A stretch of DNA of 32,000 nucleotides from Calothrix sp. PCC 7103 (GCA_000331305.1 KB217483.1:1071937-1103936), one strand, 5' to 3'. Numbered from the stretch's first letter, positions 2,796 to 19,475 are shown. Numbers and translations are program-made. The notes: a model not told the origin generated them from the letters alone.

Positions 2796-3177
2796 TTAAA
2801 AAAGGCGGATATTGATAATTTAGTAAAGCTTGCAAGGATTTGCTCAATCTTATCTGGAGAGAATTTAAGCGTAAATTATATTTTAAAAATTTAATAATAT
2901 TAGTAGTTAAGATGCAGTAAATAAAGCTAAAAAAGATGGACAATTGTAATTTTTTAAATCTTGTTATAAAGCATCATAATTTTAGCTAAGTACTTAAATA
3001 CTCAAGTATCTAGGTATCTGCATAGTATAGACATAGTAAAGCTTTAAGTGCCTTTCGGTGTCAGGACGTACAAGACTTCAATTAATAGGCGCTTGAATTT
3101 TGAGCGCCAATACAATTCAAAAGTTAGATGAACTGTATGTATGTGTTTGTATCAGAAATGGAAAGGCGCCGTACTGT

Positions 3178-3363
3178 TTAAGATTCTGAAGTTGGACGCA
3201 TATTTTTATTAATTTCAGCATCGACTCTACATTTACGAAGCGCTAACTTAGCTGGCAATCCGCGAAGATACCAACGGTAAATAGTAGCTATAAATTTCTC
3301 ATCTTCTCTCTCTGCTGGTAATAGTGTTTCCACAATTGCGTTCTTAACTGTTGTGGCTTGCAA
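3178..3363 (-). CDS. Small ORF of doubtful reality; its first codons lie inside the left inverted arm
   Basis: Track ORF with a TTG start. No recognisable motif. Its 5' end overlaps repeat arm 3349-3645. Confidence 0.2.
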   Translation of the reverse strand: MQATTVKNAIVETLLPAEREDEKFIATIYRWYLRGLPAKLALRKCRVDAEINKNMRPTSES

Positions 3364-3645
3364 TCATAAACCCTTGGGCTTACAAACAAGACAATTCTCG
3401 GCTCACAATAAATGCAACTAGATTTTAAGATATCGGGCGAAGTGCGGGCGGAGCGCAAAGTATCCCAAACTCTTTACAAGTAAGCATTTTAGCTTATTTG
3501 CATTTTTTGTGAATCGAATTTATTTTTGTAAATTTAGTTGCATTTATTGTGGGTTCTTGTCAAGTTTTGGTGAAAGCTTTGGAAACGTTCTTGGCAGAGG
3601 GCAGTAGGCAGAGGGCAGAAGGAAGGAGTAAGGGTGAAGACATTT
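3349..3645. repeat. Left arm of long inverted repeat closing the four-helix-bundle cassette
   Basis: 3552-3645 is a perfect 94/94 reverse complement of 6045-6138. 3349-3411 matches 6139-6201 at roughly 50/63. It contains GGCAGAGGGCAGTAGGCAGAGGGCAGAAGGAAGGAG. Confidence 0.9.
3412..3551. repeat. 140-bp foldback insertion present only in the left arm
   Basis: The right arm reads (rc) CGGCTCACAATAA|GGTTCTTG without interruption. The left arm has 140 bp between these. The inserted region is bracketed by the perfect 17-bp inverted pair CACAATAAATGCAACTA (3404-3420) / TAGTTGCATTTATTGTG (3535-3551). Confidence 0.7.
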
Positions 3646-3717
3646 GACTGTATAATTTTTTAGTTTTAAAATAAAAATAATAAATATTTATACTAGTATA
3701 TTAGATTTCATTATAAT

Positions 3718-5382
3718 ATGGAAGTACTAAAAAGCTTATTACCAGATAAAAATCTTCTCCTGCTTGAAAGTTGTAATATTGACGAGGAGCGAAGGGAGGT
3801 AATCGTGCTTGTTTCTTCAGTACAAACAGCAGTTAAATGTCCAGTCTGCAATGAGGCAACACATAAAATTCATAGCCACTATGAGCGTAAAATAGCTGAT
3901 TTATCATGGGCGAACTATGGTACTTTACTTCAACTGCGTGTGAGGAAATTTTTTGCATCAATACGGAATGTAAAAGACGAATATTTACTGAAAGATTAAC
4001 AGATATTGTGGCTCCGTGGGCACGTCGAACTATGAGATTAGCGTCTCGATTAACTGCGATAGGTTTAGCATCAGGTGGTGCAGCAGGATTCAGATTATCA
4101 CAAAAATTAGGCTTAAACACAAGTCGTAATACGCTATTAAATTTAGTTCGTAGAATACCTTTACCATCACCTGATTCTCTAAAAATTATAGGGGTAGATG
4201 ATTTTTGTTTTCGTAAATGCAAAACTTACGGTACTATCGTTGTTAATTTAGAAAATAATCAACCTGTTACATTATTAAAAGACCGTTCATCTGAAACCTT
4301 AAGCTCATGGTTAAAAGAAAATCCTGGTATTCAGATTGTTTCACGAGACAGAGCGAAAGCTTATGAAAAGGAATTAAAGAAGGCGCACCCGATGCAATTC
4401 AAGTTGCAGACCGCTTTCACTTACTACAAAATTTAGCTCAAACGCTTTATGAAGTGTTTGGGATATATAGTAAAGACTTGAAAGAAGTCGAACAATTACA
4501 AAATCAAGCTTCTGTAATTAGGGATGAAGAAAACATCGTTGTTGTCACTTCTCCAACCGAAGCACCACCACCAGTTAAACAAAACAAAAAGCAGAACAAC
4601 GTCGTGCCAAAAGAAAGAAATCATCAAAAACTTGGGAGCTACATAGTCAAGGAATGAATGCGGGAGTTATTGCTCAAAGGCTTGGTATTAGTCGCACAAC
4701 AGTTTTCCGTAATCTCCGTAATCCGACTTTTGTAGAGCGCCGGGGGCGTAGTGATAAAGGTCGAGGTTTAGTAAAGCCTTATCAAGATTACATCATAAAA
4801 CGATGGAATGAAGGCTGTCGTGAAACTAAAATAATATTTGAAGAAATTAAACAACAAGGATATGTTGGTAGCTATGCTACTTTAACTCGTTACACCGCAC
4901 GTTTACGCGAATGCCAAGGTTTAAAAACGGCAGAGATTGTCAACTGTACGCCTACCAAAAATTGTTAAACCATCAAGAAAACCTCTCACTCCTTATAGCG
5001 TAACATGGCTAATTTTAGGTAGCTCTGATTCTGGTGTTTCAGAGTCTGAGCGAGAAGAATTAGTCGTGTCTTTAAAAGCACAAAGCCCAAGCTTAAGAGA
5101 AGGAATTGAGTTAGCAGAAAATTTTATATCTCTTATCCGTCAACGACAACAAGAAGAATTAGATACTTGGCTGACTGTTGCTTACAACAGCATTTTATCA
5201 CCTTTCCATCGCTTTGCCAAAGCTTGCTTGAAGATTACAACGCGGTCAAAGCTGCTTTGACAACGCCTTGGAGTAATGGACCTGTCGAAGGACAAATTAA
5301 TCGACTTAAAATGCTGAAAAGACAAATGTATGGTCGTGCAAAACTAGACTTGCTAACTAGACGATTTTTGTTACAAATCTAA
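3718..5382 (+). pseudogene. ISL3-family transposase, decayed by at least five frame changes
   Basis: Six consecutive track ORFs in alternating frames together give: zf-ISL3 (CPVCNEATHKIHSHYERKIADL), the DDE region (IGVDDFCFRKCKTYGTIVV...IVSRDRAKAY...ADRFHLLQNL across a shift), and the ISL3 C-terminus (PWSNGPVEGQINRLKMLKRQMYGRAKLDLL). IS ends are not resolved; the element is roughly 3646-5470. Confidence 0.8.
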
Positions 5383-5548
5383 ATTTAAGTTGACTCGATT
5401 TGCTAGGTACAAATATATTTTTGTAAATATTAATAACCAAATAATAACAATCATTAATTAATCTAACTTAGTGAAGACAAACCTAAGTATAAAAACATAT
5501 AATTAGTTCTACTTCAAATCTTCAAATCTTCTGCTTTCCAACTTAACT

Positions 5549-5914
5549 ATGAGTTACCGAAACCAATTTGTATGGAAAAGGGCAGTACAACTAGCTATCC
5601 ATTGCTATAAGTTTACTCAAGCATTTCCAAAACATGAATTATATGGTTTGACAAGTCAAATACGGCGTTCAGCAGTATCAGTAGCGTCTAATATTGCTGA
5701 AGGTTATGGTCGGCAATCAAGGCAAGAATATATAAAATTCTTATATATTGCTTTAGGCTCACTACGAGAATTAGATACCCAATTTATAATTGCTCAAGAG
5801 GTAGATATACTTGACAACAAAAATCGTTTTACGACCATCATGAACGAGGTGGAAGAAATGCAAAGTATATTGGTTGCAACCTTAAACAAACTAACTGCTG
5901 GAGTAAAGAAATAG
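5549..5914 (+). CDS. Four-helix-bundle protein (23S rRNA intervening-sequence protein / Avd-like family)
   Basis: Family signature RRSAVSVASNIAEGYGRQSRQEYIKFLYIALGSLRELDTQ. Size of 121 aa is typical. Confidence 0.85.
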   Translation: MSYRNQFVWKRAVQLAIHCYKFTQAFPKHELYGLTSQIRRSAVSVASNIAEGYGRQSRQEYIKFLYIALGSLRELDTQFIIAQEVDILDNKNRFTTIMNEVEEMQSILVATLNKLTAGVKK

Positions 5915-6044
5915 TCTCAAAAAACTGAATTTTTAGCGTGATGTAATCCAACCTCTAAAAGCTTGTTGGAGCTTTAGTTTTATCTTATTGACTATAAAAT
6001 TTAGTCACCGAGACAAAAATAAAGCTCCAAATTTTAATGTTATT

Positions 6045-6201
6045 AAATGTCTTCACCCTTACTCCTTCCTTCTGCCCTCTGCCTACTGCCCTCTGCCAAG
6101 AACGTTTCCAAAGCTTTCACCAAAACTTGACAAGAACCTTATTGTGAGCCGAAAAGCGCCTTGTTTGTAAGCCGGGTGCTTCTTGATTGCAAGCCACAAC
6201 A
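6045..6201. repeat. Right arm of the long inverted repeat
   Basis: Reverse complement of 3349-3411 plus 3552-3645 (see left arm). It includes the TTG start at 6183 of the 967-aa ORF. Confidence 0.9.
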
Positions 6202-9086
6202 CCTACGGTTACTATGAAGCTATTATAACTAGCTCAAATGAATTACAAAATTTTCTGAACCAAATAGATGATCTTACTTTTGCTCAAGTCGATGAATATA
6301 GCTTAATAACTATCGGTGGACGGAAGATTTTTAAAGATAAAAATAGTCCTAAATCTAAAGTTATTAACCTTGAAGATATTGCAGCGTTGCTTCAGTCAGA
6401 CATTAATAATGAGAATGGTAGTTTATTTTCTCTAGACGAAGAGTATAATTATCCTAGTTTAGCAAAAGCGTTAGACAGTGCAAAACCAATACTCAAAAAA
6501 CTTAAACTAGATGGTCAACCTGTAATAAGTGATAAGGACATTGAACTTGCAAAACAGGAATTATCACGTAAAAACAATAAAGAGTACTTCAATTTAATTG
6601 CTAAGTTGAAAAAGTTTTGGGAGTCAAAAGAACTGGTAAAAAAAGCATTTAATCAAGGAGAGCTTGCAGCAGAACTTCAAAAAGAGCTAAAAGATTTTAA
6701 AGAAAAAGAATATCCAAAAAGTCAAGAAAATATTAAAAAACATAAAGACAAAATTGAAAAAGAGAAAGAGTTAGTAGCATCTAATTCTACTTTATCTCCA
6801 GAAACAATTAGTTCACAATTTATTGACTTAGACAAAAGACAGCAAGAGTATGAAAAAGATTGGGGAAAGTATCTAAAAGCAAAAGAAGAAGAAATTATAT
6901 CTAATAAAAAAAAGCCTATTTATGATTTATTAGAAGCCGAACGAACAAAAGGCTTTATGTTTGCCAGATATGAGGGTAATTTGCGAGGTAAAAAAGTTGG
7001 TTTACAAGGAACAGAAGTTGGAATGACTTTGTTCTATACAGACTTATTGATGAAAATCTGGAATTTCAACTTTCAGCGTGCAACTTTAGATACTGGTATT
7101 GAAGGTTTTAAGCCAACAACTAGAATTCCTGTTTCATCAATTTATAAATCAGAAATGGAGAAATATTGGGATGGTCGCCTATGGTTAGAAGTGGACAGCG
7201 ATTCATATGAAATAGCAAATGAAGGTAGAAATATTATTTTTGCGCCTAATGTAACGCGAATACAGGGTGCAGTATCTGAAGGTCCTCAATCAGATGAAGA
7301 AAGTAATCCACGTCCAAATACCGCTGTTTTTTTGAATTGGTGGAACAATTATTACGGGGAAGTTGCCCGTCACGAACCACAATACGAACGTCTGAATCAA
7401 ATTATGAAATGGAGCTTGTTAATTAACAAGCTGAATCAATTACAACAAACTAATCCTTTAAGTTTTTTAGAAAAAGTAGAAGTAACGAGAACTAATTGGT
7501 TTCCTAATTGGATTCAAAAGCAAGGGAAAAAGTTGGCATTTACAAAGTGGGATAAAATTAAATTTTTTCCTGAAGGATATAACTATCAAGGTCTAAAAAC
7601 AGAAAAATTGGAATTTTTAGATTCAGAAAATTACGGTGAATCTTATTCATCTTTTTATGGAGGAGTATCTTTGGCTAGTAAGAAAAACTTCGATGGTCGT
7701 ATTCCTTTACCTAATAATAATAGCTCGGTAAGTAAACTTAGCCGTCGCTCTAACATCGACTATAGCTCTGTAAAAATTAAAGCCGGAAAAATTGACGAAT
7801 TTACAAATTTAGCTGGAACAGAACATAAATTTATTTATCGGAATAAAAATGTCAGTGAAATTGTAATAACACCAAAAATAGGAACTAAATTTCGTACCCA
7901 CAATTCTGAATTAAAGTCAGAAAATCTAAAATTAATACCCAAGTTTGAGTCAACACCAAACAATGGGCTAAAATTAACAACAAGATTAGAAGATGCCAAA
8001 GGGGTTAGTACTGAGTTTGGCGAAGTCAATATTACCAAAACTAAAAATGGCTTTGGGGTAGGCTTTCAAAGCCGAGATATTGACGCAGCTTATTCGTCAT
8101 TTTCTGATCTGAGTAAGCACAAAGGCGATATCCCTACTTTTCTTGCTTCAAAAGATGATGTTGTCTCTTTCAGATACTCACAATCTCATAAAGATTTCTA
8201 CGTCAAACAATCTAATTCTAATAAATGGTTAAAATTTAGCGAAGGAAGTGGAGGTGGAAACGATTTACCACCCTCACAGCCAACGATGACTGTTGCAGAA
8301 CCAGCTAAAGATGGGCGTATCTTAAACGGGGAATTTGTAGATGAAGCTCAAGTACCAGGATATGCACAAGGGTTTCAAGAGTTTCCAGGTAAAGGAGCAG
8401 GTTCTCCTAAAGAATTTACTCCTCGTCAAAAAGCTCAACAACTTGCTGAAAACCCATTAGCTTTTATTGAGAGTCGTAAAGTAGACTTACAATTGCGAAA
8501 ACAAAATATTGATTCAGCGCTGAAAGATCAAAATTATGCTAAAGCCGAAAAGTTAGTTAACGAATCAATAACGCAACATGGAAAAGACCCAGAATTAATG
8601 CTAAGGAAAGCATCAATAGAGCAACAGTTAGGCAGAGTAAAGATAGAAATTATTACTCAGAAAGGTGCAACACCAATAAAAAAGAATGATTTCTTTGATG
8701 CAATCAAGAGTCGTAATTTCAAACGAATTGAAACTGATACGGAATTTCTGTATGTTCAAGACTCTCCAAGTTTAAATAACTTAGAGCCTACTCAACTAAT
8801 TGAACAAAGTCTTTCTTCAGGTTCAGGAATTAAACGTTACAAATTACAACCCGGAAAAATTGGCGAAGTTCCAATCAGTCATAGTGGGTTTGGTGATGTA
8901 AGTGTTTCTAGCCATCCCTCAACTGAATTTAAAGGTAACAACATTGCTAATTCTCTAAAAAATCGACCTCAAAACTCAGACTCTAATAATGATTGCGAAA
9001 ATCAACAAGTAAAAGTAGAAAATCAAAATCCTAATTGTTCACCAGAAAAGTCAGAAAAACCTGTTTCTGTACTAATTAAATCATAA
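6183..9086 (+). CDS. Large hypothetical protein (967 aa): K/E-rich coiled-coil N-terminal third, Trp-rich central region, TPR-like C-terminal segment
   Basis: An uninterrupted 2.9-kb ORF. There is no in-frame ATG for more than 100 codons and the only start (TTG 6183) lies in the repeat arm, so the 5' end may be remodelled. I recognise no catalytic motif. It contains no GGCGCC sites. Confidence 0.7.
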   Translation: MIASHNTYGYYEAIITSSNELQNFLNQIDDLTFAQVDEYSLITIGGRKIFKDKNSPKSKVINLEDIAALLQSDINNENGSLFSLDEEYNYPSLAKALDSAKPILKKLKLDGQPVISDKDIELAKQELSRKNNKEYFNLIAKLKKFWESKELVKKAFNQGELAAELQKELKDFKEKEYPKSQENIKKHKDKIEKEKELVASNSTLSPETISSQFIDLDKRQQEYEKDWGKYLKAKEEEIISNKKKPIYDLLEAERTKGFMFARYEGNLRGKKVGLQGTEVGMTLFYTDLLMKIWNFNFQRATLDTGIEGFKPTTRIPVSSIYKSEMEKYWDGRLWLEVDSDSYEIANEGRNIIFAPNVTRIQGAVSEGPQSDEESNPRPNTAVFLNWWNNYYGEVARHEPQYERLNQIMKWSLLINKLNQLQQTNPLSFLEKVEVTRTNWFPNWIQKQGKKLAFTKWDKIKFFPEGYNYQGLKTEKLEFLDSENYGESYSSFYGGVSLASKKNFDGRIPLPNNNSSVSKLSRRSNIDYSSVKIKAGKIDEFTNLAGTEHKFIYRNKNVSEIVITPKIGTKFRTHNSELKSENLKLIPKFESTPNNGLKLTTRLEDAKGVSTEFGEVNITKTKNGFGVGFQSRDIDAAYSSFSDLSKHKGDIPTFLASKDDVVSFRYSQSHKDFYVKQSNSNKWLKFSEGSGGGNDLPPSQPTMTVAEPAKDGRILNGEFVDEAQVPGYAQGFQEFPGKGAGSPKEFTPRQKAQQLAENPLAFIESRKVDLQLRKQNIDSALKDQNYAKAEKLVNESITQHGKDPELMLRKASIEQQLGRVKIEIITQKGATPIKKNDFFDAIKSRNFKRIETDTEFLYVQDSPSLNNLEPTQLIEQSLSSGSGIKRYKLQPGKIGEVPISHSGFGDVSVSSHPSTEFKGNNIANSLKNRPQNSDSNNDCENQQVKVENQNPNCSPEKSEKPVSVLIKS

Positions 9087-9104
9087 ATAAAATAAACTGT
9101 TTGA

Positions 9105-9132
9105 ACCCAGCTTTTTATGTAGCTGGGTTTTC
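9105..9132 (+). terminator. Rho-independent terminator candidate after the 967-aa gene
   Basis: ACCCAGCT (9105-9112), an 8-nt loop, AGCTGGGT (9121-9128), then TTTC. Confidence 0.55.
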
Positions 9133-9189
9133 ATATAATCCAACATTTAAAGCGAAAAAACATATACTAAAATTAAATGAGGTAATATT

Positions 9190-12084
9190 TTGTCATACGA
9201 TAACTTTGATGAATTAGAAGCAGCTTTTGAAATAGCCCAGACAAAATGGCAACAAGGCAATTTACTCGCAGCTTATGATGATTTGTCTAAAATTTTTACC
9301 TACCGACTTTTAAATTCTCAATTAATTGATGCAGATTTGAAGGTGATTCAATCCCTCGCTGACTTAGCTGGTATCTTAGGTGAATTTCAAGTTGCAGATG
9401 ACTTACTTTGTGGTGCAGTTGGTTTATACCAACAAGCAAACAGCGAACCCTTAACTGATTATGCAAACCTCAGACGCATTCAATTGTCTTTAGATAAAGG
9501 AGATTTATACCAAGCACAAAAATTATTGCAAGAAATGTCTCCACGCATTGGTGATATTAATGATATAGAGTTTTCTTCCTCCGGATTATTACAGTGGGAG
9601 AATAGTTGTATTTGGCGCCATGCAAATTCAAAAGATAGAACTGTATTATTTGCCGAATTATATCTGGCAATGGGACGACTATCAAGTGCATTAGGGCAAT
9701 ATAGTCAGGCATTAGAAGCCTTACAAAGAGGTATATTTCATGCTCAAGTGGAGACAACACCCGATTTAGCAAAGCAAACATTACTACCATTAAAGCTAGC
9801 AATTGCCGCAGCATATCTCGAAAAAGGCGATTTTGAGCAAGCCGACAATTACCTGTCACTGCTCAAAAAGCCAATAGATAGCTCACAACACCTGGAGTAT
9901 CAAATTCGTTGGCTGGAGCTATCGGGTAAACTCCATCTACTGTGGGGAAATTTGGGTGCAGGATTAAAACGATTTCAGGAAGTTCAAGAAAAATGTACAA
10001 TCATGCGCTCTCAACGGGCAGTTTTGCGCTCTAACCTCAATCTTGCCCATATTTTAATTCTCCTTAACCAAACAAGCACAGCTCAACAATATTTAGTAGA
10101 TACTCAAAACAATGCTTTAGCGATTGGCGATAAAGCTTTAGCAGCAAGGGCAGAATTGTTACTACAGCTTGCTGGCGCCCGTAGCCGTTCTTTGGTAGCA
10201 GAAAGTCCTGTAGGAATGTCAGTAGTGGATATGCGTAATAAACAAAAACACTACAAGCAAACAGTAGAAGAGCTATGGGAATCACCCAATTTCTCAACTC
10301 AATCCCCTAATTATTTAGCTTGGTTTGAAGACCGTGCCCTAGCCTTCCAATGGTATTTAAGTAATCTAGAGTTTAAAAATGCCAACGATTTTCTTCAAAA
10401 AATCAAAAAGGTTTTTAAGTCTACAGACTCCCAATTTATTCAAGTACAAATACAAATATTATCAGGCATATTTTCTTACTATCAAGGAACAGAACGTAAT
10501 GATATTACGAAAATTAACCAAGCCCATCAAATTTTAGAAGCAATTTGCCCCCAACTAGAGGAAATGTCTTTAAAACCCGAACTTTGGCAAGTACAGCGAG
10601 TATTAATTTGGTGTCGCACACGGTTAAATTATCCACTTTCCGAAATTGAAGCTTTAACAACATCAACAAATCTGCTACTTGAACAAATGACATCATCGCT
10701 AACACCAGAAGACCAAGTATTTTATTTGCTCAATAAATGGACAGCAGATGAGGAATACATTGCCGCACAAATAAACCAACTACAGCGCTTGCAACTAAAA
10801 CTCAGCAAGGCTATTTTTTTCCACCGTCCTTGGCTACAATGGCAACTGATACAAAAGCTAAATCCTTTAGTCGAGCATATTGATCGCTATAAAGATGCTT
10901 TAGCCAAGCGTACAATCAAAGGCGAACGCTCTCAAGTGCAACTTCTCCCACCAGGTTCACTTTTATTGCGTATCCTTACTCACCCCAAAAATCGAGTCAC
11001 CCTTTCATTTCTAATTTTACCCGATCGCGTTTTAGTAGTTAAAACTAGTCAATTTTTATTTGATTTTCATGTCATTCCCACTACTCGTTTAGCAGTACGT
11101 AATATCGTTCGACGCTGGTATCAAAACATCGACACTCTTAACGGTGGTCGAGATATGAACCTCGCTGCTAATAACGATTACGAGCAACAAATAACATCCG
11201 CAAATGAAGTCGGGCAACAAATAACCGATAATCTCGCGGACATTTTACAACTACCACAAATACTTGAGTGTATACCCAAACATATCCAAGCATTAACAAT
11301 AATACCTGATGACATCTTACACGGATTCCCCTTTGCCTGCATTACTTACAAAGGAAAGTATTTAATCAAACATTATGCCCTGGCGATCGCATATGAATCT
11401 AAAAATAAACCAATTCAACCTAAACGACCTATCCCCTTGAAAAAACAAGCACTTGTTATTGGTATATCCAATGGCAATAAACATTTTCGTCCCTTACCCG
11501 GAGTCAAAAGAGAATTACAGCATATTAATAAATGGTTAGACCAGCATCAAATTAAGCATTTGCAATTGGAAAATAATAATGCTCATAAAGCCGCTATTGT
11601 AGAAACTATATCCAAAGCAACACTGCTCCACATGGCTTGTCATGGAATTTTTGAGCCAAATCAACCCGATAGCTCAGGACTAGTACTAATTTCCGACTCA
11701 GGAGAACAGGAAGTTCTTAGTCTCAGGGAACTCTCCGAGATTGACTTAACAAAATTACGCCATGCAACTCTCTCCTCCTGTTGGTCTGCTGACCACTTTA
11801 TACTTCCCAGACGTTGGATTATTAGCTTACCAGAAACCCTCTGGCGAGCAGGGACTCAAAGTATTTTAGGTTCTCTGTGGGAGGTAGACGATAAAATAGC
11901 GATATCTTTTATGGCTAGATTTTATGATTACTTGGACAAGTTTCCACGAGATGAAGCCCTGCGTCGTACACAGCTAGATTGTCTTGAAGGTAGCTTACCG
12001 AATTGTGGTGCTGAAACATTTAATCCCAAATTTTGGGCTGGGTTTAATTTGTATGGAGACTACCGACCTTTGATGAAAATTTAA
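9190..12084 (+). CDS. TPR-like repeat protein with C-terminal CHAT (caspase-like) protease domain, 964 aa
   Basis: The C-terminus has the CHAT catalytic dyad context: LLHMACHGIF (His codon 11641-11643) and ATLSSCWSA (Cys codon 11779-11781). The helical-repeat N-terminal ~600 aa is typical of TPR-CHAT proteins. TTG start with GAGG 8 nt upstream. Confidence 0.85.
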   Translation: MSYDNFDELEAAFEIAQTKWQQGNLLAAYDDLSKIFTYRLLNSQLIDADLKVIQSLADLAGILGEFQVADDLLCGAVGLYQQANSEPLTDYANLRRIQLSLDKGDLYQAQKLLQEMSPRIGDINDIEFSSSGLLQWENSCIWRHANSKDRTVLFAELYLAMGRLSSALGQYSQALEALQRGIFHAQVETTPDLAKQTLLPLKLAIAAAYLEKGDFEQADNYLSLLKKPIDSSQHLEYQIRWLELSGKLHLLWGNLGAGLKRFQEVQEKCTIMRSQRAVLRSNLNLAHILILLNQTSTAQQYLVDTQNNALAIGDKALAARAELLLQLAGARSRSLVAESPVGMSVVDMRNKQKHYKQTVEELWESPNFSTQSPNYLAWFEDRALAFQWYLSNLEFKNANDFLQKIKKVFKSTDSQFIQVQIQILSGIFSYYQGTERNDITKINQAHQILEAICPQLEEMSLKPELWQVQRVLIWCRTRLNYPLSEIEALTTSTNLLLEQMTSSLTPEDQVFYLLNKWTADEEYIAAQINQLQRLQLKLSKAIFFHRPWLQWQLIQKLNPLVEHIDRYKDALAKRTIKGERSQVQLLPPGSLLLRILTHPKNRVTLSFLILPDRVLVVKTSQFLFDFHVIPTTRLAVRNIVRRWYQNIDTLNGGRDMNLAANNDYEQQITSANEVGQQITDNLADILQLPQILECIPKHIQALTIIPDDILHGFPFACITYKGKYLIKHYALAIAYESKNKPIQPKRPIPLKKQALVIGISNGNKHFRPLPGVKRELQHINKWLDQHQIKHLQLENNNAHKAAIVETISKATLLHMACHGIFEPNQPDSSGLVLISDSGEQEVLSLRELSEIDLTKLRHATLSSCWSADHFILPRRWIISLPETLWRAGTQSILGSLWEVDDKIAISFMARFYDYLDKFPRDEALRRTQLDCLEGSLPNCGAETFNPKFWAGFNLYGDYRPLMKI

Positions 12085-12679: not shown

Positions 12680-13225
12680 TAGGCTATCAGTCGAGATAAC
12701 GGCAAAATGGAGCATATTGTAAGTATTTGCAAAGCTAATTAGCAAAAACCTTGCTTTGCCGTTGTTTCAGCCTTAACCTAAACTTAACTATTTAGATGAA
12801 GACATTCCCAAAAAGAGTCATTTACGGGCAAGTGTCAGGAACATAAAAGCTTGCGGGGTGCGCGTTGGTGTATAATCTACCATCAAGGCACCTCCGCATT
12901 GGCACGAAGGCTAAATAATTTAATCTAAAAACAAATGTTTTACTCGATACACAAATATTGGTTTTTGTCAATATATTAGTAGACTAACGCTTTAGGTAAA
13001 ATGCACTTGCTGCTTTTATCTCAGATTTTACGCGCTCAGATAAACACTGTACCGAAGTTGCATTTCCGACTGGCGCCTTGCCATATTCCTTGAAAAAATT
13101 AAAACAAATCTTTCACAACCTGCATAAATATACGTAAATCAATTCGTATCTCCTAATGAAGGGGTTCAAACAATATAACTCACTCCAAAAGCAATACCTC
13201 AACATTATTCATAGGAGATAATAAC

Positions 13226-13606
13226 ATGAAAACATGGAAATTGGCACTAACAACTCTAGTGTTAGTAACTTCAACTTGTCTTCCCAAAGCGCAAGCAATT
13301 AGCTTATCAAAAACCGAAGTCAATCAATCTGAATCAACATTATTAGCATCATCTACTCAAATTGCGCTCAATGACACCTACTGGGGACCAGAGAGAGATT
13401 TTTCTATTCAGATGCCTGGTGCTGTACAAGAAAATCAATATAGGAAATTAATCTCATGGAGTGACACAAGCGAAACTGCCTACGTTATTCTCCACAGAGA
13501 CCTGCCAGTTGAAGCAGCTTATTTATCTGCTGACCAAATTCGTGAAACATTACAGACTTCAATGCGAGGAGAAATGACAACTACAGGAAAAATTGTGAAA
13601 TTGTGA
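13226..13606 (+). CDS. Small secreted protein (signal peptide)
   Basis: MKTWKLALTTLVLVTSTCLPKAQA|ISL is a Sec-type signal with an AxA site. AGGAGA lies upstream. The stop overlaps the next gene's GTG (GTGA). Confidence 0.55.
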   Translation: MKTWKLALTTLVLVTSTCLPKAQAISLSKTEVNQSESTLLASSTQIALNDTYWGPERDFSIQMPGAVQENQYRKLISWSDTSETAYVILHRDLPVEAAYLSADQIRETLQTSMRGEMTTTGKIVKL

Positions 13607-15066
13607 AAAATTACCAACATCTATTTCAAAATCAAGAAATACGTAGATTGTTGGATAATCATCTGTTAAATAAAGATATTTGGCATCAGGTTGATGATTT
13701 AGGATTAGAAGTATCCGAACATTTAAGTATATGGACTTTAAATTTTACAGAAATTCATCAAGAGCAGTTAAAAATTCTAGCGAAAGTTTATATTTTGATA
13801 AAATGTAAATTATTAAGAAGCGTAACTCTCAACGGACATTTGACAACGCTCAGAAAATTTTCTAATTTTTTGAGAGTAAAGAACATTGATAAACTAGAAG
13901 AAATTGATAATCTGGTTTTTGATAATTTGGATTCTTATTTATGTTCTCAAGGTTTATCAAAACCTACTATTTGTCAATACTACATAAATCTTTCCAGCTT
14001 TTTTGATACTTGTCGTTTAGAAGGATGGATAAATGTTAATACTTATTGGTTTCAGGGAAGAAAAACATCAATCAGTCTTAATAATGAGAGAATTGATTAT
14101 ATACCTGAAGAAGTTTGGAATCAGCTTGAAGAAAATCTTCACCTTTTACCAGAACAACTGCAAAGAATGGTTTTGATTATTAGAACAACAGGATTAAGAA
14201 TAGGAGAATTAGTAAATTTACCTTTAAATTGTCTTAGGAAACGGAATGAACAATGGCGACTACGACTAAAAGAAACCGAAAAATATGAAATCGAAGATGA
14301 ATTACCAATAAATATACCCGAATTAGTATTAGTAATTCAAGAACAACAAAACTATATTAAACAAACTTTTGGGTCAAGTTATAATCATCTATTTTGTACC
14401 CTTTATAAAGCAAGAGTTGTGAATAAAGATGAAAAATGCCACTTGAAAAAGCCTGTTGCAAAGGTTATGAAGTCAGTAAATTTTAACAGATGGTTAAATT
14501 GGTTAGCAAAAACAGCTCATATTTGCGACTCTTCAGGTATGGTGTGGAAATTTTCTTCACATCAATTTCGTAGGACAATCGCAACTATAATGACTAATGT
14601 CGGCATCCGTGACTTGATTATTCAAAAATATTTAAGGCATCGTTCTCCTGATATGCTTTCTTACTATAAGCATATTATGAAAGAAGTGCTAGAAAAAGAA
14701 TACGAAGAATTAATTAAAGAAAAAAAGTATGTTGATATTACAGGAAAAGTAGTGGATTCTTATAAACCAACAAATCCGATAACAACGCTACTCAGACACA
14801 AAATGTTTCAAATTACAACGCAATATGGTGAGTGTCATCGTCCGACATTAAAAAATCCTTGCCCGACAGTAAATGCTTGTTGGAGATGCAAGGAATGGCG
14901 TGTAAGTAATGAAGATTTAGAAGATTTAAAAGAAGATTTACAGCGAGTAGAAAATGAACTTCAAATTGCAGAAGCACTAGGAATGCTTAGACAACAACAA
15001 GGTTTAGAAAACGACCGAAATATTCTTCGTAAGTGTATTATAGCTTTAGGAAATAATTATGATTGA
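13603..15066 (+). CDS. Tyrosine recombinase (Tn554 TnpA-like), 487 aa
   Basis: Catalytic pattern RTTGLRIGEL ... SSHQFRRT ... YLRHRSPDMLSYY. Cys-rich tail CHRPTLKNPCPTVNACWRC. GTG start. Confidence 0.8.
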   Translation: MKNYQHLFQNQEIRRLLDNHLLNKDIWHQVDDLGLEVSEHLSIWTLNFTEIHQEQLKILAKVYILIKCKLLRSVTLNGHLTTLRKFSNFLRVKNIDKLEEIDNLVFDNLDSYLCSQGLSKPTICQYYINLSSFFDTCRLEGWINVNTYWFQGRKTSISLNNERIDYIPEEVWNQLEENLHLLPEQLQRMVLIIRTTGLRIGELVNLPLNCLRKRNEQWRLRLKETEKYEIEDELPINIPELVLVIQEQQNYIKQTFGSSYNHLFCTLYKARVVNKDEKCHLKKPVAKVMKSVNFNRWLNWLAKTAHICDSSGMVWKFSSHQFRRTIATIMTNVGIRDLIIQKYLRHRSPDMLSYYKHIMKEVLEKEYEELIKEKKYVDITGKVVDSYKPTNPITTLLRHKMFQITTQYGECHRPTLKNPCPTVNACWRCKEWRVSNEDLEDLKEDLQRVENELQIAEALGMLRQQQGLENDRNILRKCIIALGNNYD

Positions 15067-16857
15067 AATTAATTGGAATCAAGATTATAAAAAAGAATTT
15101 ATCTGCCCTAGATGCGATAAATATGGATTAAAGTTGCAAGGTACTAATAAACATGGTAAAAGACGGTTAAAATGTGACAATTGTCGAAGAGTAATTAGTA
15201 TCTGTTGTGATTTAAAGAAAAATAAAATATTTTTTGATTTCAAGACAAACACTACATGGATTTGGGGGCAAAAAGTCAATGAATTTATTTGTCCTACATG
15301 TGGAGATACAAATATATTTTTTTATGGAATGTGTAGTCTTACTGGGAAAAAACGATTTTATTGTAAAACGTGTAAAAAATATACTTATGATGCTATAGAG
15401 CTAGCACGTGGGAATGTGAGTAGAATTAGTCATAAAGATATAGCAATAAAAGCATTTAAATTTGAAGAAGATACGTGGGATTTAAGAAGTATTATTTCTA
15501 GTTGTGATAGTCGTAATATCGATTATATTTTATACTTTAATACTCTGAAACCGCAATGGTTAAAAATGTTAGTTAAAAAATATATTTATCACTTGTGTAA
15601 ATTAGAAATATCACCGAAAAAATTAACGCTAATCATATGGTTAGCTTTCGTTTTTTCTCTCGTTATTTGGTAGAAAAAAATATTGATAGTATCAAACAAA
15701 TAAATCGCAGCGTTGTTCTTGACTTTCTTAGTCACCAATCTACTAGCCAAGCTGTCAGACATAGATTAGGAACTTTAAAAGACTTTTTCTACATAGGAAC
15801 ATCCCAAGGATGGTTTAATTTTGACCAAGATATAATTCGAGATACTGATTACCCCAAATATAGATTAGGAAATCCAGATCCACTAGACGATACAGTTAGA
15901 GAACAAATAGAAAAAAACTTGCATATATTACCTGACTCAATTGCCCGAATGTGGATTATCACATTTTTTGCAGCATTACGTCCTTCAGAACTGGCTTTTT
16001 TAAAGAAAGATTGTTTAGTGCAAGATGGAGCTAGTTGGAAAATTGTTTGGAATAGAAAAAAGGGAAAAAATCAACATGAAGTTCCTGTGACACGAGTAAT
16101 TGCTAAAGTTATTCAAGAGCAGCAGTCATATATTAATAATTTATGGGGCAATGAATGGGAATACTTGTTCTGTCACTATCAAAATATATCTGAGACTGAC
16201 CCAAGCCAACCAAATTTAGAACCAGTAAAAAAAGTAATTCCTAAGAGTTGTAACTCATTTACAAAATCTATTCGTTGCTTAATAAAAGCTCTTAATATTC
16301 GAGATGAAAATAATCAACTAGCAATATTTAGCCATCGTTTAGTTCGCCCAACTCGTTTAACTCAACTTTTTGAACAAGGGCATGACCTTACTGTTGTGAG
16401 TGCATGGGCAGGTCATAAAAAATTAGCAACAACAATTCTTCATTATACAAAAGTTAGTTGTGACTTAATAGAGAAAGAGGCTGGACATATTCAAAAGGCA
16501 CTATTTAATAATGATGGTAAACCTTTATATTATGAGTCTATGCCTCAAACATTTTGGAAAAATCCTCGCACTCATGAGTTGAATTTATCAGGTGACCATA
16601 TTAACACTCCTATCTATGGTTATTGTGGACTTCCTTTAGACCAAAATTGTGATAAGTTTCGTGCCTGTTATACTTGTAGTTGTTTTGCTGCCACACTTGA
16701 AAAATTACCTCTGTACATTAAAACCCGCGATGAGCTTAGAGCCAAAGAGTCTAATGCTTTGGCAAATGGGCATGATGTATTAGTAGAACAATTTGGGCGA
16801 CAAGCTGCCCAATTAGATAAAATTATTGTTAGCTTGCAAGGAGGAAATTACTCATGA
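15059..16857 (+). CDS. Second tyrosine recombinase (Tn554 TnpB-like, ~600 aa) with N-terminal double zinc ribbon; split into two track ORFs by a frameshift at A6 (15617-15622)
   Basis: Zinc ribbons: CPRCDK...CDNCRR and CPTCGD...CKTCKK. Catalytic pattern ALRPSEL ... SHRLVRPTR ... GHKKLATTILHY. Reading ...CKLEISPKK then -1 to INANHMVSFRFFSRYL aligns colinearly with CKLLRSVTLNGHLTTLRKFSNFL of the upstream paralogue. Confidence 0.75.
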
Positions 16858-17708
16858 TACCTGACCAAAAAGAAGCTCGTATTAAAATCCTTACTGACAC
16901 TCAAGCAGCAAGAAAACAAGAGGCTTTAAAGAAAGTTGAGAACGCGATTGAGCGTCTACAAAAAATCGGTGCTAAAATCAATTTTCAAACTATAGCGAAA
17001 GAAGCTTCGGTTAGCGTTCCATATTTATATAAATATCCAGAATTAAAAGCGCATATAGCTCAATTGCGCTCCCAACAATCATCAATGCCATCAGAACCTT
17101 ATATACAACCACCTGTTACAGCGAAAGCTCACTCTCAAGTTGTAGAACGTTTAAAAAAACGTATCCATGAATTAGAAGCTGATTTGAGCGAGTTTAGACG
17201 TAAAAATGAAGCATTAGCAGGACAAGTTTATCGAGTACATTCTTTAATTGAACAAGTTGAACGTCAAAAAGAAATTATAGAAACCTTAGAAAATCGTTTA
17301 AAATCAGCCAATCAGCAAGTAACTGAAAGTAAAGTTATTCCTCTAAATAAAAAGTCAGTAGTTGTAAGTGAGCGTATATTAGCTGAACTGAATGAAATAG
17401 GAATAGAACTCAACAATAATTTAACCAAACTTATTGAAAATGCCACAGAATCGGATATTTTGGCAGCTATTGAATATTATAAATATGAGCAAGAACGAAC
17501 AAATATTCAAAATCCTGGTGGGTGGTTAGCTCGTGCAATTAAAGAGCGTTGGAAGAAACCAGATATACATCAAAACTTAAAGGCTGAAAAATTATCAAAA
17601 GAACCGGAACTATTTTCCAGCAACGCCACGCTATGCAATAGAAAGTTTGTATCTCTTGAAGAACTTGTAAATATTAGTAATATATTTGATAGTGAATCAG
17701 ATGACTGA
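16854..17708 (+). CDS. DUF6262/Tn554 TnpC-like HTH protein with long coiled-coil C-terminal extension (284 aa)
   Basis: The N-terminus KQEALKKVENAIERLQKIGAKINFQTIAKEASVSVPYLYKYPELKAHIAQLR matches the pattern I recall for DUF6262 proteins next to recombinase pairs. ATGA overlap with the upstream gene. C-terminal motif NPGGWLARAIKERW. Confidence 0.6.
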   Translation: MIPDQKEARIKILTDTQAARKQEALKKVENAIERLQKIGAKINFQTIAKEASVSVPYLYKYPELKAHIAQLRSQQSSMPSEPYIQPPVTAKAHSQVVERLKKRIHELEADLSEFRRKNEALAGQVYRVHSLIEQVERQKEIIETLENRLKSANQQVTESKVIPLNKKSVVVSERILAELNEIGIELNNNLTKLIENATESDILAAIEYYKYEQERTNIQNPGGWLARAIKERWKKPDIHQNLKAEKLSKEPELFSSNATLCNRKFVSLEELVNISNIFDSESDD

Positions 17709-19017
17709 CAAAATACCACCTCAAAATCTTGAAGCAGAAGAAAATATACTTGGTGGTTGCTTACTAGACCCCAATGCGATTGGCAGAATTGCTGATATTT
17801 TAACGCCAGAAGCATTTTATTTTTCTGTTCATCAACAAATTTACAAAGCAATATTAGAATTGTATAGTCACTCATTACCAACTGATTTATTAGCAGTTAC
17901 TTCTTGGCTAGCCGACAAGAATCTATTAACTAAAATTGGCGGTAAAAATCAACTAAGTAAATTAGTTGAAACAACAGTATCAGCCATAAATATAGACCAC
18001 ATAGCAAATATTGTTTTAGATAAATATCAGCGTCGGCAGCTAATTAGCATTGGTCATGAAATTGTTGAACTCGGCTATGATGAAACATTTCAAACTAAAC
18101 AAGTATTAGAGCGGTCAGAAAGCCGAATATTTAATTTAAATTCAAATCAACAAGATAAATTTAAACCACAAATAATAAGTGATTGCCTGCGTGAAGTATT
18201 TCAAGAGTTAAAACAAGGATATTCTCCAGGGTATCCAACTGGATTAAAAGATTTAGATGTCCTAATTGGAGGACTAAATAAACAGGATTTAATCGTAATT
18301 GCCGCAAGAGCATCAATGGGTAAAACTTGGTTAGGGTGCTATTTTACTAACTATATTGCTATGCAGCAACTACCTGTTGTTTTCTTCTCCGCCGAAATGT
18401 CTAAATTACAATTAACTAAAAGATTTTTAGCAATGCATTCTGGTATTGATTCTAGTAGGCTAATTCGTAATCAAATATATACTGACGAGATGGATAACTT
18501 AAAACAAGCTTTGGTTATTTTAAACCAACTACCCATTATCATTGATGATACACCTGCACTGTATCAAAATCCATTCAGGATATGTTCTGTTTTACGAAAA
18601 GTTAAGTCCGAACGAGGCAATTTAGGTTTAGTAGTTATGGATTATATCCAAAAACTTGGTGATAGGGCAGCAAGTAATAGAGCGCAATCAGTTGGTCAAT
18701 TCTCTGGCGCCTTTAAAGATATTGCTAAAGAATTTGATGTTCCATTTGTCGCTTTAGCTCAAATTAATAGAGGTGTTGAAAGTCAAACAAATAAACGCCC
18801 AACAATGGCGGATATTAAAGATTCTGGCGATATTGAACAAGATATGGATGTAGGATTACTTCTTTACCGAGACGAATATTATAACCCGAACACAATAGAC
18901 TTGGGATTAATGGAGATAAATGTCGCAAAAAATCGTAATGGCGCAACGGGTATTTGCAAAGTTAAATTTTCTGCTTCTATTGGAACGTTTTGTAATACTG
19001 TAGTTTCTCAAGGCTAA
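17686..19017 (+). CDS. dnaB: Replicative DNA helicase DnaB (probable start ATG 17701)
   Basis: NLEAEENILGGCLLDP N-terminal motif, Walker A AARASMGKTW, DYIQKL, ALAQINRGVE, KNRNGATG. The ATGACTGA overlap with the upstream stop has the same architecture as ATGATTGA at 15059. Confidence 0.9.
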   Translation: MIVNQMTDKIPPQNLEAEENILGGCLLDPNAIGRIADILTPEAFYFSVHQQIYKAILELYSHSLPTDLLAVTSWLADKNLLTKIGGKNQLSKLVETTVSAINIDHIANIVLDKYQRRQLISIGHEIVELGYDETFQTKQVLERSESRIFNLNSNQQDKFKPQIISDCLREVFQELKQGYSPGYPTGLKDLDVLIGGLNKQDLIVIAARASMGKTWLGCYFTNYIAMQQLPVVFFSAEMSKLQLTKRFLAMHSGIDSSRLIRNQIYTDEMDNLKQALVILNQLPIIIDDTPALYQNPFRICSVLRKVKSERGNLGLVVMDYIQKLGDRAASNRAQSVGQFSGAFKDIAKEFDVPFVALAQINRGVESQTNKRPTMADIKDSGDIEQDMDVGLLLYRDEYYNPNTIDLGLMEINVAKNRNGATGICKVKFSASIGTFCNTVVSQG

Positions 19018-19036
19018 CAAAGAATATTATTGTTGA

Positions 19037-19475
19037 AAGCATGTTGTATAAAACATAAACAACAACAAAACCCTTTCTCCAAGCATGTTGTATACATCGT
19101 GTATGGCATAATTATCGAACGGCAACAGTTGCCGTTCGATAATTATGCAATACACAACAGCTGAAAGCTATGTATTGTAGGTATTTCTACGTCATTAATA
19201 CTTTATACAACAAGTAGCAAGTTTTGGTTCTAATAAGCTGCTACCTCAAAAACTGCCCAGAATCTATTCGTCATGAGAAAGTTTACTTGTATGAACTTAT
19301 CTTTAAACAACGATATAAATTGTTGTTGTTGTTTTTGTTATTTAATATATTTTTGTTGTATTACATAACGATGAACCAATGTGGGAACTGTTGTATGTTA
19401 GTTTGCATAAAGTAGTATTTTGACTATATATTTATAAGAGTCGCAGCCCCCTTAACTCGTCTATACAATGCTGAC
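19037..19475. repeat. Iteron-like repeats plus long palindrome (candidate replication origin)
   Basis: AAGCATGTTGTATA x2 (19037-19050, 19081-19094). TGTTGTAT core also at 19354-19361 and 19389-19396, and inverted at 19205-19212. Perfect 43-nt palindrome at 19106-19148 (GCATAATTATCGAACGGCAAC A GTTGCCGTTCGATAATTATGC). The surrounding tracts are AT-rich. Confidence 0.5.

Follow-up and report, generated by a model that had tools for sequence, protein, structure and literature searches.

A block of overlapping genes was analyzed in a 32,000-nucleotide stretch of DNA from Calothrix sp. PCC 7103 (GCA_000331305.1 KB217483.1:1071937-1103936), referred to below as the window, which is part of contig C12 (1.56 Mb), one of the 12 contigs of a genome of 11.6 Mb. 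The block occurs once in this genome. An earlier note on this DNA had described it as a Tn554-like set of two tyrosine recombinases and a small helix-turn-helix protein, coupled in translation to a DnaB helicase. Comparisons with relatives indicated that the block is very probably a decayed, nonautonomous copy of a transposon from a branch of the Tn554 family that is widespread in cyanobacteria and in which dnaB is one of the element's own genes, and the explanation set out below is, as a whole, probable. The features of the locus, in window coordinates, were as follows.

13226 to 13606, + strand: truncated host gene for a signal-peptide protein of 126 amino acids, not part of the element (DNA comparison with relatives)
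13592 to 13607, no strand: deletion junction at ~13599/13600 with the ATTGTGAA x2 tandem (end of host homology at 13598)
13603 to 15066, + strand: tnpB1, 487-amino-acid tyrosine recombinase, a TnpB paralogue (Phage_integrase, 3.5e-15)
15059 to 15673, + strand: N-terminal part of tnpB2, 204 amino acids, with zinc ribbons and a TAG stop at 15671 to 15673 (Zn_ribbon_IS1595, 2.4e-7)
15617 to 15622, + strand: A6 run, the likely tnpB2 frameshift site (frame change in the alignment with a homologue)
15637 to 16857, + strand: catalytic part of tnpB2, 406 amino acids, in a different frame (Phage_integrase, 8e-13)
16854 to 17708, + strand: long form of tnpC, 284 amino acids (Pfam DUF6262, alignment, and AlphaFold2 model)
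17701 to 19017, + strand: dnaB, 438-amino-acid DnaB-family replicative helicase of an element-specific clade, with its stop codon at 19015 to 19017 (TIGR00665)
19018 to 19111, + strand: element right end (conservation in an alignment with four complete ones)
19110 to 19144, no strand: host hairpin repeat, AATTATCGAACGGCAAC A GTTGCCGTTCGATAATT, centered on 19127 (DNA folding and other genomic occurrences)
19142 to 19368, - strand: miniature gene-less derivative of the element, inverted (alignment to Calothrix ends)

Genes of the block and kinship with Tn554

All of the start-stop overlaps described in the earlier note were found, with ATGATTGA at 15059 to 15066, ATGA at 16854 to 16857, and ATGACTGA at 17701 to 17708. 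The picture of four consecutive overlapping genes held for the overlaps but not for the second gene, which consists of two open reading frames (ORFs) in different frames; the block is not composed of four intact genes, because 15059 to 15673 and 15637 to 16857 are out of frame. The GTGA at 13603 to 13606 was likewise present, but the coupling to the upstream gene that had been read from it is an accident of the deletion junction.

Kinship with Tn554, as had been proposed, was established by comparison with the annotated Tn554-related operon of Bacillus cereus. In a profile search, the third protein of the block matched DUF6262 (PF19776) at 41.8 bits against a cutoff of 29, and it had the length of 284 amino acids, the long coiled coil, and the sequence NPGGWLARAIKERW that had been attributed to it. 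Its residues 9 to 127 were 31% identical to the B. cereus "Tn554-related transposase C," and it corresponds to the small helix-turn-helix TnpC of the Tn554 family, at 284 amino acids compared to the usual ~125. Both recombinases matched the B. cereus TnpB, TnpB1 with 27% identity (E, 2e-26) and no listed match to the B. cereus TnpA, and the catalytic part of TnpB2 with an E value of 3e-15. Residues R199, R323, H346, and Y355 of TnpB1 were invariant across 19 homologues (H320 was present in 18), as were R115, R237, H260, and Y270 of the catalytic part of TnpB2. Both window recombinases are large tyrosine recombinases of the TnpB type, the second one frameshifted, and in place of a pair of TnpA and TnpB there are two TnpB paralogues, the TnpA orthologue being gone. 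In relatives, the TnpA orthologue is encoded by a gene for a 361-amino-acid protein (35 to 38% identity to the B. cereus TnpA; E, 1e-63 to 1e-73), and both larger recombinases are TnpB paralogues with ~27% identity to the B. cereus operon.

Five groups of tyrosine-recombinase transposons are distinguished, namely, ICE/IME, strand-biased circularizing integrative elements (SE), GInt, RIT, and Tn554 (PMC10214605); the hosts of Tn554-related elements are given there as Staphylococcus and Enterococcus only, and no helicase is mentioned. The Tn554 family of Staphylococcus, Enterococcus, and Bacillus resembles the cyanobacterial clade in having homologous TnpA, TnpB, and TnpC proteins encoded in the same order by an operon of overlapping genes, as well as short terminal inverted repeats of imperfect match and, as far as the relatives suggest, selective choice of insertion sites (PMC10214605 for Tn554 itself). 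In the clade, however, tnpB is duplicated in most members, dnaB lies inside the ends, and the length of TnpC is more than doubled by an added coiled coil, four-helix domain, and acidic tail; the window copy, in addition, has no tnpA. GInt (ginABCD) and SE (intA-tfp-intB-srap) elements also have three tandem recombinase-fold genes followed by a gene for a TnpC-like small protein (PMC5385486, PMC10214605), which in GInt is GinD (PMC5385486), but the likeness is one of architecture only. These elements are proteobacterial, and no helicase has been reported for them. Catalytic residues are missing from their middle or third protein, but both TnpB paralogues here retain R, R, H, and Y. Mobile elements carrying their own DnaB for their own replication are found among SPI-7/PAPI-1-type ICEs, phages, and satellites (NCBIfam models NF040583 and TIGR03600). 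Unlike the cyanobacterial element, these elements are large, with a single integrase and full replication and transfer modules. The window DnaB differs from both types in sitting beside cyanobacterial host DnaBs in the phylogenetic tree and in falling below the cutoffs of the island-type model NF040583 (319.2 versus 655) and the phage-type model TIGR03600 (364.8 versus 498.65). No account of a Tn554-like element that carries DnaB, or that resides in cyanobacteria, was found in full-text literature searches covering few subscription journals. The interest lies at the level of the family, in which a replicative helicase is built into a recombinase transposon; the window contains a dead copy.

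Intact relatives and the linkage of dnaB to tnpC

Intact members of the clade have the gene order tnpA-tnpB1-tnpB2-tnpC(long)-dnaB in a tightly spaced, often overlapping operon with one or two tnpB paralogues, and they measure 5.2 to 6.8 kb, or more when cargo is present. The family has moved recently in these relatives. The genus-mate Calothrix sp. PCC 7716 (AP025018) carries two copies that are 100% identical across 6,715 bp and encode a 361-amino-acid Xer-like recombinase, a 485-amino-acid recombinase, a 611-amino-acid zinc-ribbon recombinase, a TnpC of ~280 to 287 amino acids, and a DnaB of ~440 amino acids. In Stanieria PCC 7437, the element is 5,183 bp long, with one large recombinase in place of two, and the three copies compared were 99.8 to 99.9% identical and were distributed between the chromosome and a plasmid; a fourth copy, known from tnpC, dnaB, and target matches, has a stop codon in its tnpC. 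Waterburya elements of 6,753 bp (two copies) and 8.9 kb (three or more copies) showed 99.9% identity. The dnaB gene lay inside the repeated unit in the multicopy elements of Calothrix, Stanieria, and Waterburya alike. In public records, the genes of the Stanieria copies are annotated simply as [quoted passage not shown]

The ends of the elements carried short, imperfect inverted repeats, TAAAGYAATACA/TGTATTACATAA in the subfamily of the window copy and TTATATAAC/GTCATATAA also among the relatives. An identical 5-nucleotide sequence was present at both junctions of a copy (TTTGG in Calothrix and TACAA or TTAAA in Waterburya), which may be either a core or a target duplication. In Stanieria cyanosphaera PCC 7437 (L043/L135; NC_019765 and the chromosome), the element was inserted in the 3' end of the tnpB gene of all four members of an IS200/IS605 TnpB subfamily, and these target proteins were just 54 to 57% identical to one another, compared to ~99.8% for the inserted elements. 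A DNA search for empty copies of this insertion sequence matched the query alone, and a protein search showed all four members to be occupied. A pair of loci from two further genomes, G352 and G143 (L048:4327-13797 and L049:4079-13527), was considered as a source of element ends and rejected; the 9.47-kb segment, which contains the element and is 99.6% identical between the two, is merely inverted, and it gives no guide to the ends because the inversion lies between inverted AGCAGAT-type heptamer arrays.

The 8.9-kb element was 99.9% identical between assemblies of three Waterburya metagenome-assembled genomes (MAGs) (L080 to L084), in which the flanking DNA was only ~90% identical; this points to recent horizontal spread, because the flanks are far less alike than the element. 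It occupied the same site in paralogous genes for a GANIAEANG-type repeat. In an uncultured cyanobacterium (L060; CAIVAU010000205), two different family members were arranged in tandem, with the second tnpA ~1.6 kb past the first dnaB. A complete tnpA-tnpB1-tnpB2-tnpC-dnaB unit was also present on a 225-kb contig of a Verrucomicrobiae bin (L105; CAWENZ010000018), where it represents either a binning error or transfer beyond the cyanobacteria.

The DnaB of the window was full length, as had been claimed, with a DnaB N-terminal domain (PF00772, positions 2 to 102 of 103) and a DnaB_C domain (PF03796, positions 1 to 254 of 255; 250.9 bits), a TIGR00665 score of 443.9 bits against a cutoff of 385.25, and the Walker A motif SMGKT in its translation. 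It was 85% identical to the DnaB of the Calothrix PCC 7716 element. Elsewhere, the genome of PCC 7103 encodes a chromosomal DnaB that contains an intein, along with four further DnaB paralogues; these proteins were 26 to 49% identical to that of the window.

Linkage between tnpC and dnaB was examined in two samples. Among 400 genomes of the order searched with the 284-amino-acid TnpC, matches were present in 56 genomes (PCC 7103 included), often in multiple copies, and a DnaB 61 to 68% identical to that of the window was encoded directly after tnpC in 23 of 29 fetched loci. A scan of public genome contigs yielded 79 loci, nearly all of them cyanobacterial, in which dnaB followed tnpC directly in 47, was absent in 19, and could not be placed in 13 with a contig edge too near. 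The gap between the two genes was usually -4 to +23 nucleotides. The C-terminal tail of TnpC was matched in tblastn searches at 43 of the 47 dnaB-linked loci, compared to none of the 19 dnaB-less loci, at which TnpC has a C terminus of another type; of the four linked loci without a tail match, at least three (L062, L063, and L065) carry a diverged tail. In a maximum-likelihood tree, 26 element DnaBs formed one clade with 100/100 support and a stem length of 0.69, sister to the host DnaBs of four sampled genomes. The element proteins were 61 to 85% identical to one another, and all five genomes searched retained a separate host DnaB, 44 to 47% identical to that of the window element.

The earlier note had allowed that the adjacency of dnaB would be coincidental if related genomes carried the recombinase genes without dnaB and with ends upstream of 17686. 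For the clade with this type of TnpC, the opposite was found, as shown by the linkage of dnaB, the association with the tail, and the single DnaB clade. These sequence comparisons showed dnaB to be a core gene that has evolved together with the element, and not a chance neighbor. The tree of DnaB proteins and the association of the TnpC tail with dnaB are contributions of the present analysis. For annotation, the results mean that additional "dnaB" genes of cyanobacteria are often transposon genes and not replisome paralogues.

Two dnaB-less relatives (G077, L052:2786-4918; a Rivularia MAG, L111:2659-4890) had a RecD2-type helicase gene overlapping the start of the next downstream ORF, which was tnpA in G077 and an unannotated 373-amino-acid ORF in the Rivularia locus. 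The TnpC of these relatives had a different C-terminal domain, which was also found in the 827-amino-acid plasmid protein described below.

Ends, probable target, and decay of the window copy

Downstream of dnaB, the window was aligned with five relatives, the contig of one of which stops midway. The four sequences reaching the terminus were conserved up to ..GTGTATKRCATAA (..CATAA) and then diverged at once, and the right end of the window copy was placed at ~19111 because conservation stops there in these four full right ends; the ends of the two identical Calothrix copies agreed with this boundary. The right end contains GTTGTATA repeats at 19043 to 19050 and 19087 to 19094, a AACAACAA tract, and the terminal sequence GTGTATGGCATAA.

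The hairpin at 19110 to 19144 is a perfect palindrome, with a folding energy as DNA of -27.9 kcal/mol (z, -13). Its core, CCGAACGGCAAC-N-GTTGCCGTTCGG, occurred at six or more further sites on C12, near 83593, 102602, 174711, 181939, 201954, and 388345, with no element alongside. An element right end abuts each arm of the hairpin in the window, and a hairpin on the chromosome contig C7 adjoins another inverted right end. That three separate right ends abut such hairpins suggests an insertion target, and on these sequence grounds the host hairpin repeat is the probable target.

The second right end in the window belongs to a 227-bp miniature element, with its right end at 19143 to 19215 and its left end at ~19272 to 19368, flanked by CGATA (19137 to 19141) and CGATG (19369 to 19373). 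Alignment of its reverse complement to the Calothrix ends gave z values of 7.9 for the left end and 7.4 for the right end, neither of which was reached in 300 shuffles, and the left end was further supported by a multiple alignment with left ends. The partial second miniature copy lies beside the hairpin on C7 (C7:8782533-8782830). No element able to mobilize the miniature copies was found in the genome. What had been called an iteron-like region downstream of dnaB resolved into the element right end, the host hairpin, and the inverted miniature element.

On the left side, window positions 13084 to 13598 were 90% identical to DNA of Calothrix PCC 7716 and 78% identical to DNA of a further relative (G420). 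This host homology stops at 13598, and the ORF of the relatives continues for ~65 codons, encoding a protein of ~190 amino acids compared to 126 in the window; the missing 3' part was found nowhere in the PCC 7103 genome. Alignment of TnpB1 to its relatives begins at residue 3, and no element left end was found on the left side of the block. Of 35 relatives whose sequence extends far enough upstream of the recombinase genes, 32 had tnpA there, and in close relatives it lay immediately upstream of tnpB1. A tnpA-type recombinase (~360 amino acids, first gene) was absent from both the window and the genome, in which the best tblastn match was partial (E, 5e-5). From these comparisons, a deletion evidently took the left end of the element together with tnpA and truncated the host gene. 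The tandem of ATTGTGAA at 13592 to 13607, which had been suspected of marking a junction, does lie at one, but this is a deletion junction inside the truncated host gene and not an end of the element. The copy is immobile, because the genome holds no tnpA orthologue; its tnpC and dnaB genes are intact.

A second lesion affects tnpB2. The N-terminal ORF aligned with residues 4 to 178 of a single 592-amino-acid TnpB2 ORF of Iningainema, and the catalytic ORF was 75% identical to residues 187 to 590 of the same protein. The alignment followed frame +3 until 15607 and frame +2 from 15634, which places the shift between these points; the Iningainema ORF lacks an A run here and continues uninterrupted. 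A programmed frameshift was considered and ruled out, the homologues being continuous ORFs with no A run there. Judged from the alignment, the split is a mutation or a homopolymer sequencing error and not a conserved programmed shift.

The long TnpC and the role of the helicase

The length of the third protein had been taken as a peculiarity of the window copy, and alignment showed instead that a long TnpC is the norm in the clade. The protein consists of the DUF6262 helix-turn-helix region (residues ~1 to 77), a coiled coil of ~70 residues (90 to 158), a four-helix domain (173 to 231) carrying NPGGWL..AI...W, a linker, and a tail ending in ..LVNISNIFDSESDD, in which the conserved pattern ..L..LSNIF...DD occurred only in dnaB-linked elements. 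AlphaFold2 models had predicted local distance difference test (pLDDT) values of 78.8 for the full-length protein and 83.9 for the C-terminal domain; neither model had a Foldseek match at an E value of ≤0.001, and the highest VIA-align Z value was 6.2.

Genome searches combined with hhalign detected a link between the four-helix domain and residues 682 to 746 of an 827-amino-acid protein encoded by a 14.7-kb Crocosphaera plasmid (97%; E, 1.7e-11). No longer proteins with the C-terminal region of TnpC were returned from a large protein database. The plasmid protein is cce_5282 of Crocosphaera subtropica ATCC 51142 (plasmid NC_010542; L053:1080-3563) and is annotated as "hypothetical." Its N-terminal half is common on cyanobacterial plasmids, and its C-terminal part holds the NP.G.L..AI...W domain. 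Its family occurs on small plasmids and contigs of cyanobacteria; one member carries the name "DNA primase," PF22548 is present in two, and there was a weak match to an NCBIfam primase-polymerase model. We consider cce_5282 to be probably the primase-type replication protein of its plasmid.

Because the four-helix domain is common to TnpC and a replication-type plasmid protein and the tail is found only in dnaB-linked elements, the long TnpC was read as a putative adaptor bringing DnaB to the element ends. In this model, TnpA and the TnpB proteins would act across the short core at both junctions, cutting the element out and inserting it at hairpin-associated or gene-specific sites. TnpC would bind the repeat-bearing ends through its helix-turn-helix, oligomerize through the coiled coil, and recruit the element DnaB through its C-terminal domain and acidic tail. 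DnaB would then drive a replicative step. This could be a replication-dependent copy-out from the donor site, of the kind proposed for the related SEs (PMC10214605), or the excised circle could be replicated. We put the chance that the element uses DnaB for its own replication at slightly below even. More tentatively, the clade may have captured a host-type DnaB and made TnpC its dedicated adaptor or loader; transposition would then be replicative, with the helicase being loaded onto the recombination intermediate and a copy of the element being made from the donor site.

Several points weigh against the explanation as a whole. The role of DnaB is one that we infer from gene content and comparison, and no recognizable initiator, primase, or known helicase loader was found in the element. 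The C-terminal domain of TnpC had no significant match in Pfam or among PDB sequences, and the DnaD domain of Enterococcus faecalis (2i5u) ranked only 12th for it in VIA-align (Z, 4.9; root mean square deviation, 2.5 over 57 residues), within the noise band for small helical bundles. What we take to be a likeness of this domain to the DnaD-type YxxxIxxxW motif had only noise-level matches behind it, and its assignment to a DnaB_2 cluster at 0.80 in a protein atlas is a lead only. Weak matches of TnpC to the lambda P loader, with E values above 1, were discarded as noise. The locus counts overstate the number of independent events, because related genomes are not independent, and the frameshift in tnpB2 may reflect an error in sequencing the homopolymer. 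Some related elements lack dnaB, and the helicase is therefore dispensable for the wider Tn554 family.

An integrative episome is a somewhat doubtful alternative. In such an element, integration would be nonreplicative, and a conservatively excised circle would replicate autonomously; the long TnpC would bind the origin as an initiator, and DnaB would serve as the helicase. The domain that TnpC has in common with a plasmid protein family showing primase-type signs is consistent with this proposal, as are the repeated GTTGTATA and AACAACAA motifs, which would adjoin at the junction of a circle; these repeats, however, could also be sites at the transposon ends to which the recombinases or TnpC bind, no free circular copy was present in the assemblies examined, and TnpC has no recognizable initiator fold.

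It is unlikely that dnaB is passenger cargo, a spare or modified helicase that helps the host or interferes with phages or plasmids and takes no part in transposition. Members of the family do carry varied cargo, such as an OLD-type ATPase and, in the 8.9-kb version from Waterburya, an additional 2.1 kb of DNA, and the wider Tn554 family transposes without a helicase (PMC10214605, PMC5385486). Against this, dnaB is the sole nonrecombination gene in the minimal 5.2-kb and 6.7-kb elements, always stands right behind tnpC and often overlaps it, belongs to one old clade spread across several cyanobacterial families, and covaries with the TnpC tail. A working four-gene variant, or the plasmid maintenance or resolution unit suggested earlier, is highly improbable: the four long overlapping frames, the intact dnaB and tnpC genes, and the location on a 1.56-Mb secondary replicon would suit it, but tnpA stands upstream in nearly all relatives with sufficient upstream sequence, a host gene is truncated at the upstream boundary, the reading frame of tnpB2 is broken although its homologues are continuous, the left side of this single-copy block has no left end, and such a unit fits poorly with multicopy chromosomal insertions that have defined ends.

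The route of Tn554 transposition has not been worked out (PMC10214605). A dnaB gene hard-wired in the transposition operon together with a covarying TnpC tail offers a direct experimental handle on Tn554-type movement, and Calothrix PCC 7716 and Stanieria PCC 7437 are culturable and hold intact, recently active copies. If adaptor function and replicative transposition are correct, the clade would provide a natural example of copy-out, a route that for Tn554-like and SE elements has so far been no more than a proposal, and would reveal a new kind of helicase loader in cyanobacteria, for which we know of no identified loader. The window adds the end of the life cycle, with an element remnant left stranded, a miniature derivative without genes, and evidence for a host hairpin target.

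The distribution of GGCGCC in the window was also inspected. As had been observed, the block is free of this palindrome over most of its length, with none between 13078 and 18705, a gap that is weak evidence by itself because a comparable second gap exists at 3171 to 9613. The palindrome is strongly overrepresented in this genome (28 occurrences in the window compared to ~2 expected), and the body of the element contains a single GGCGCC.

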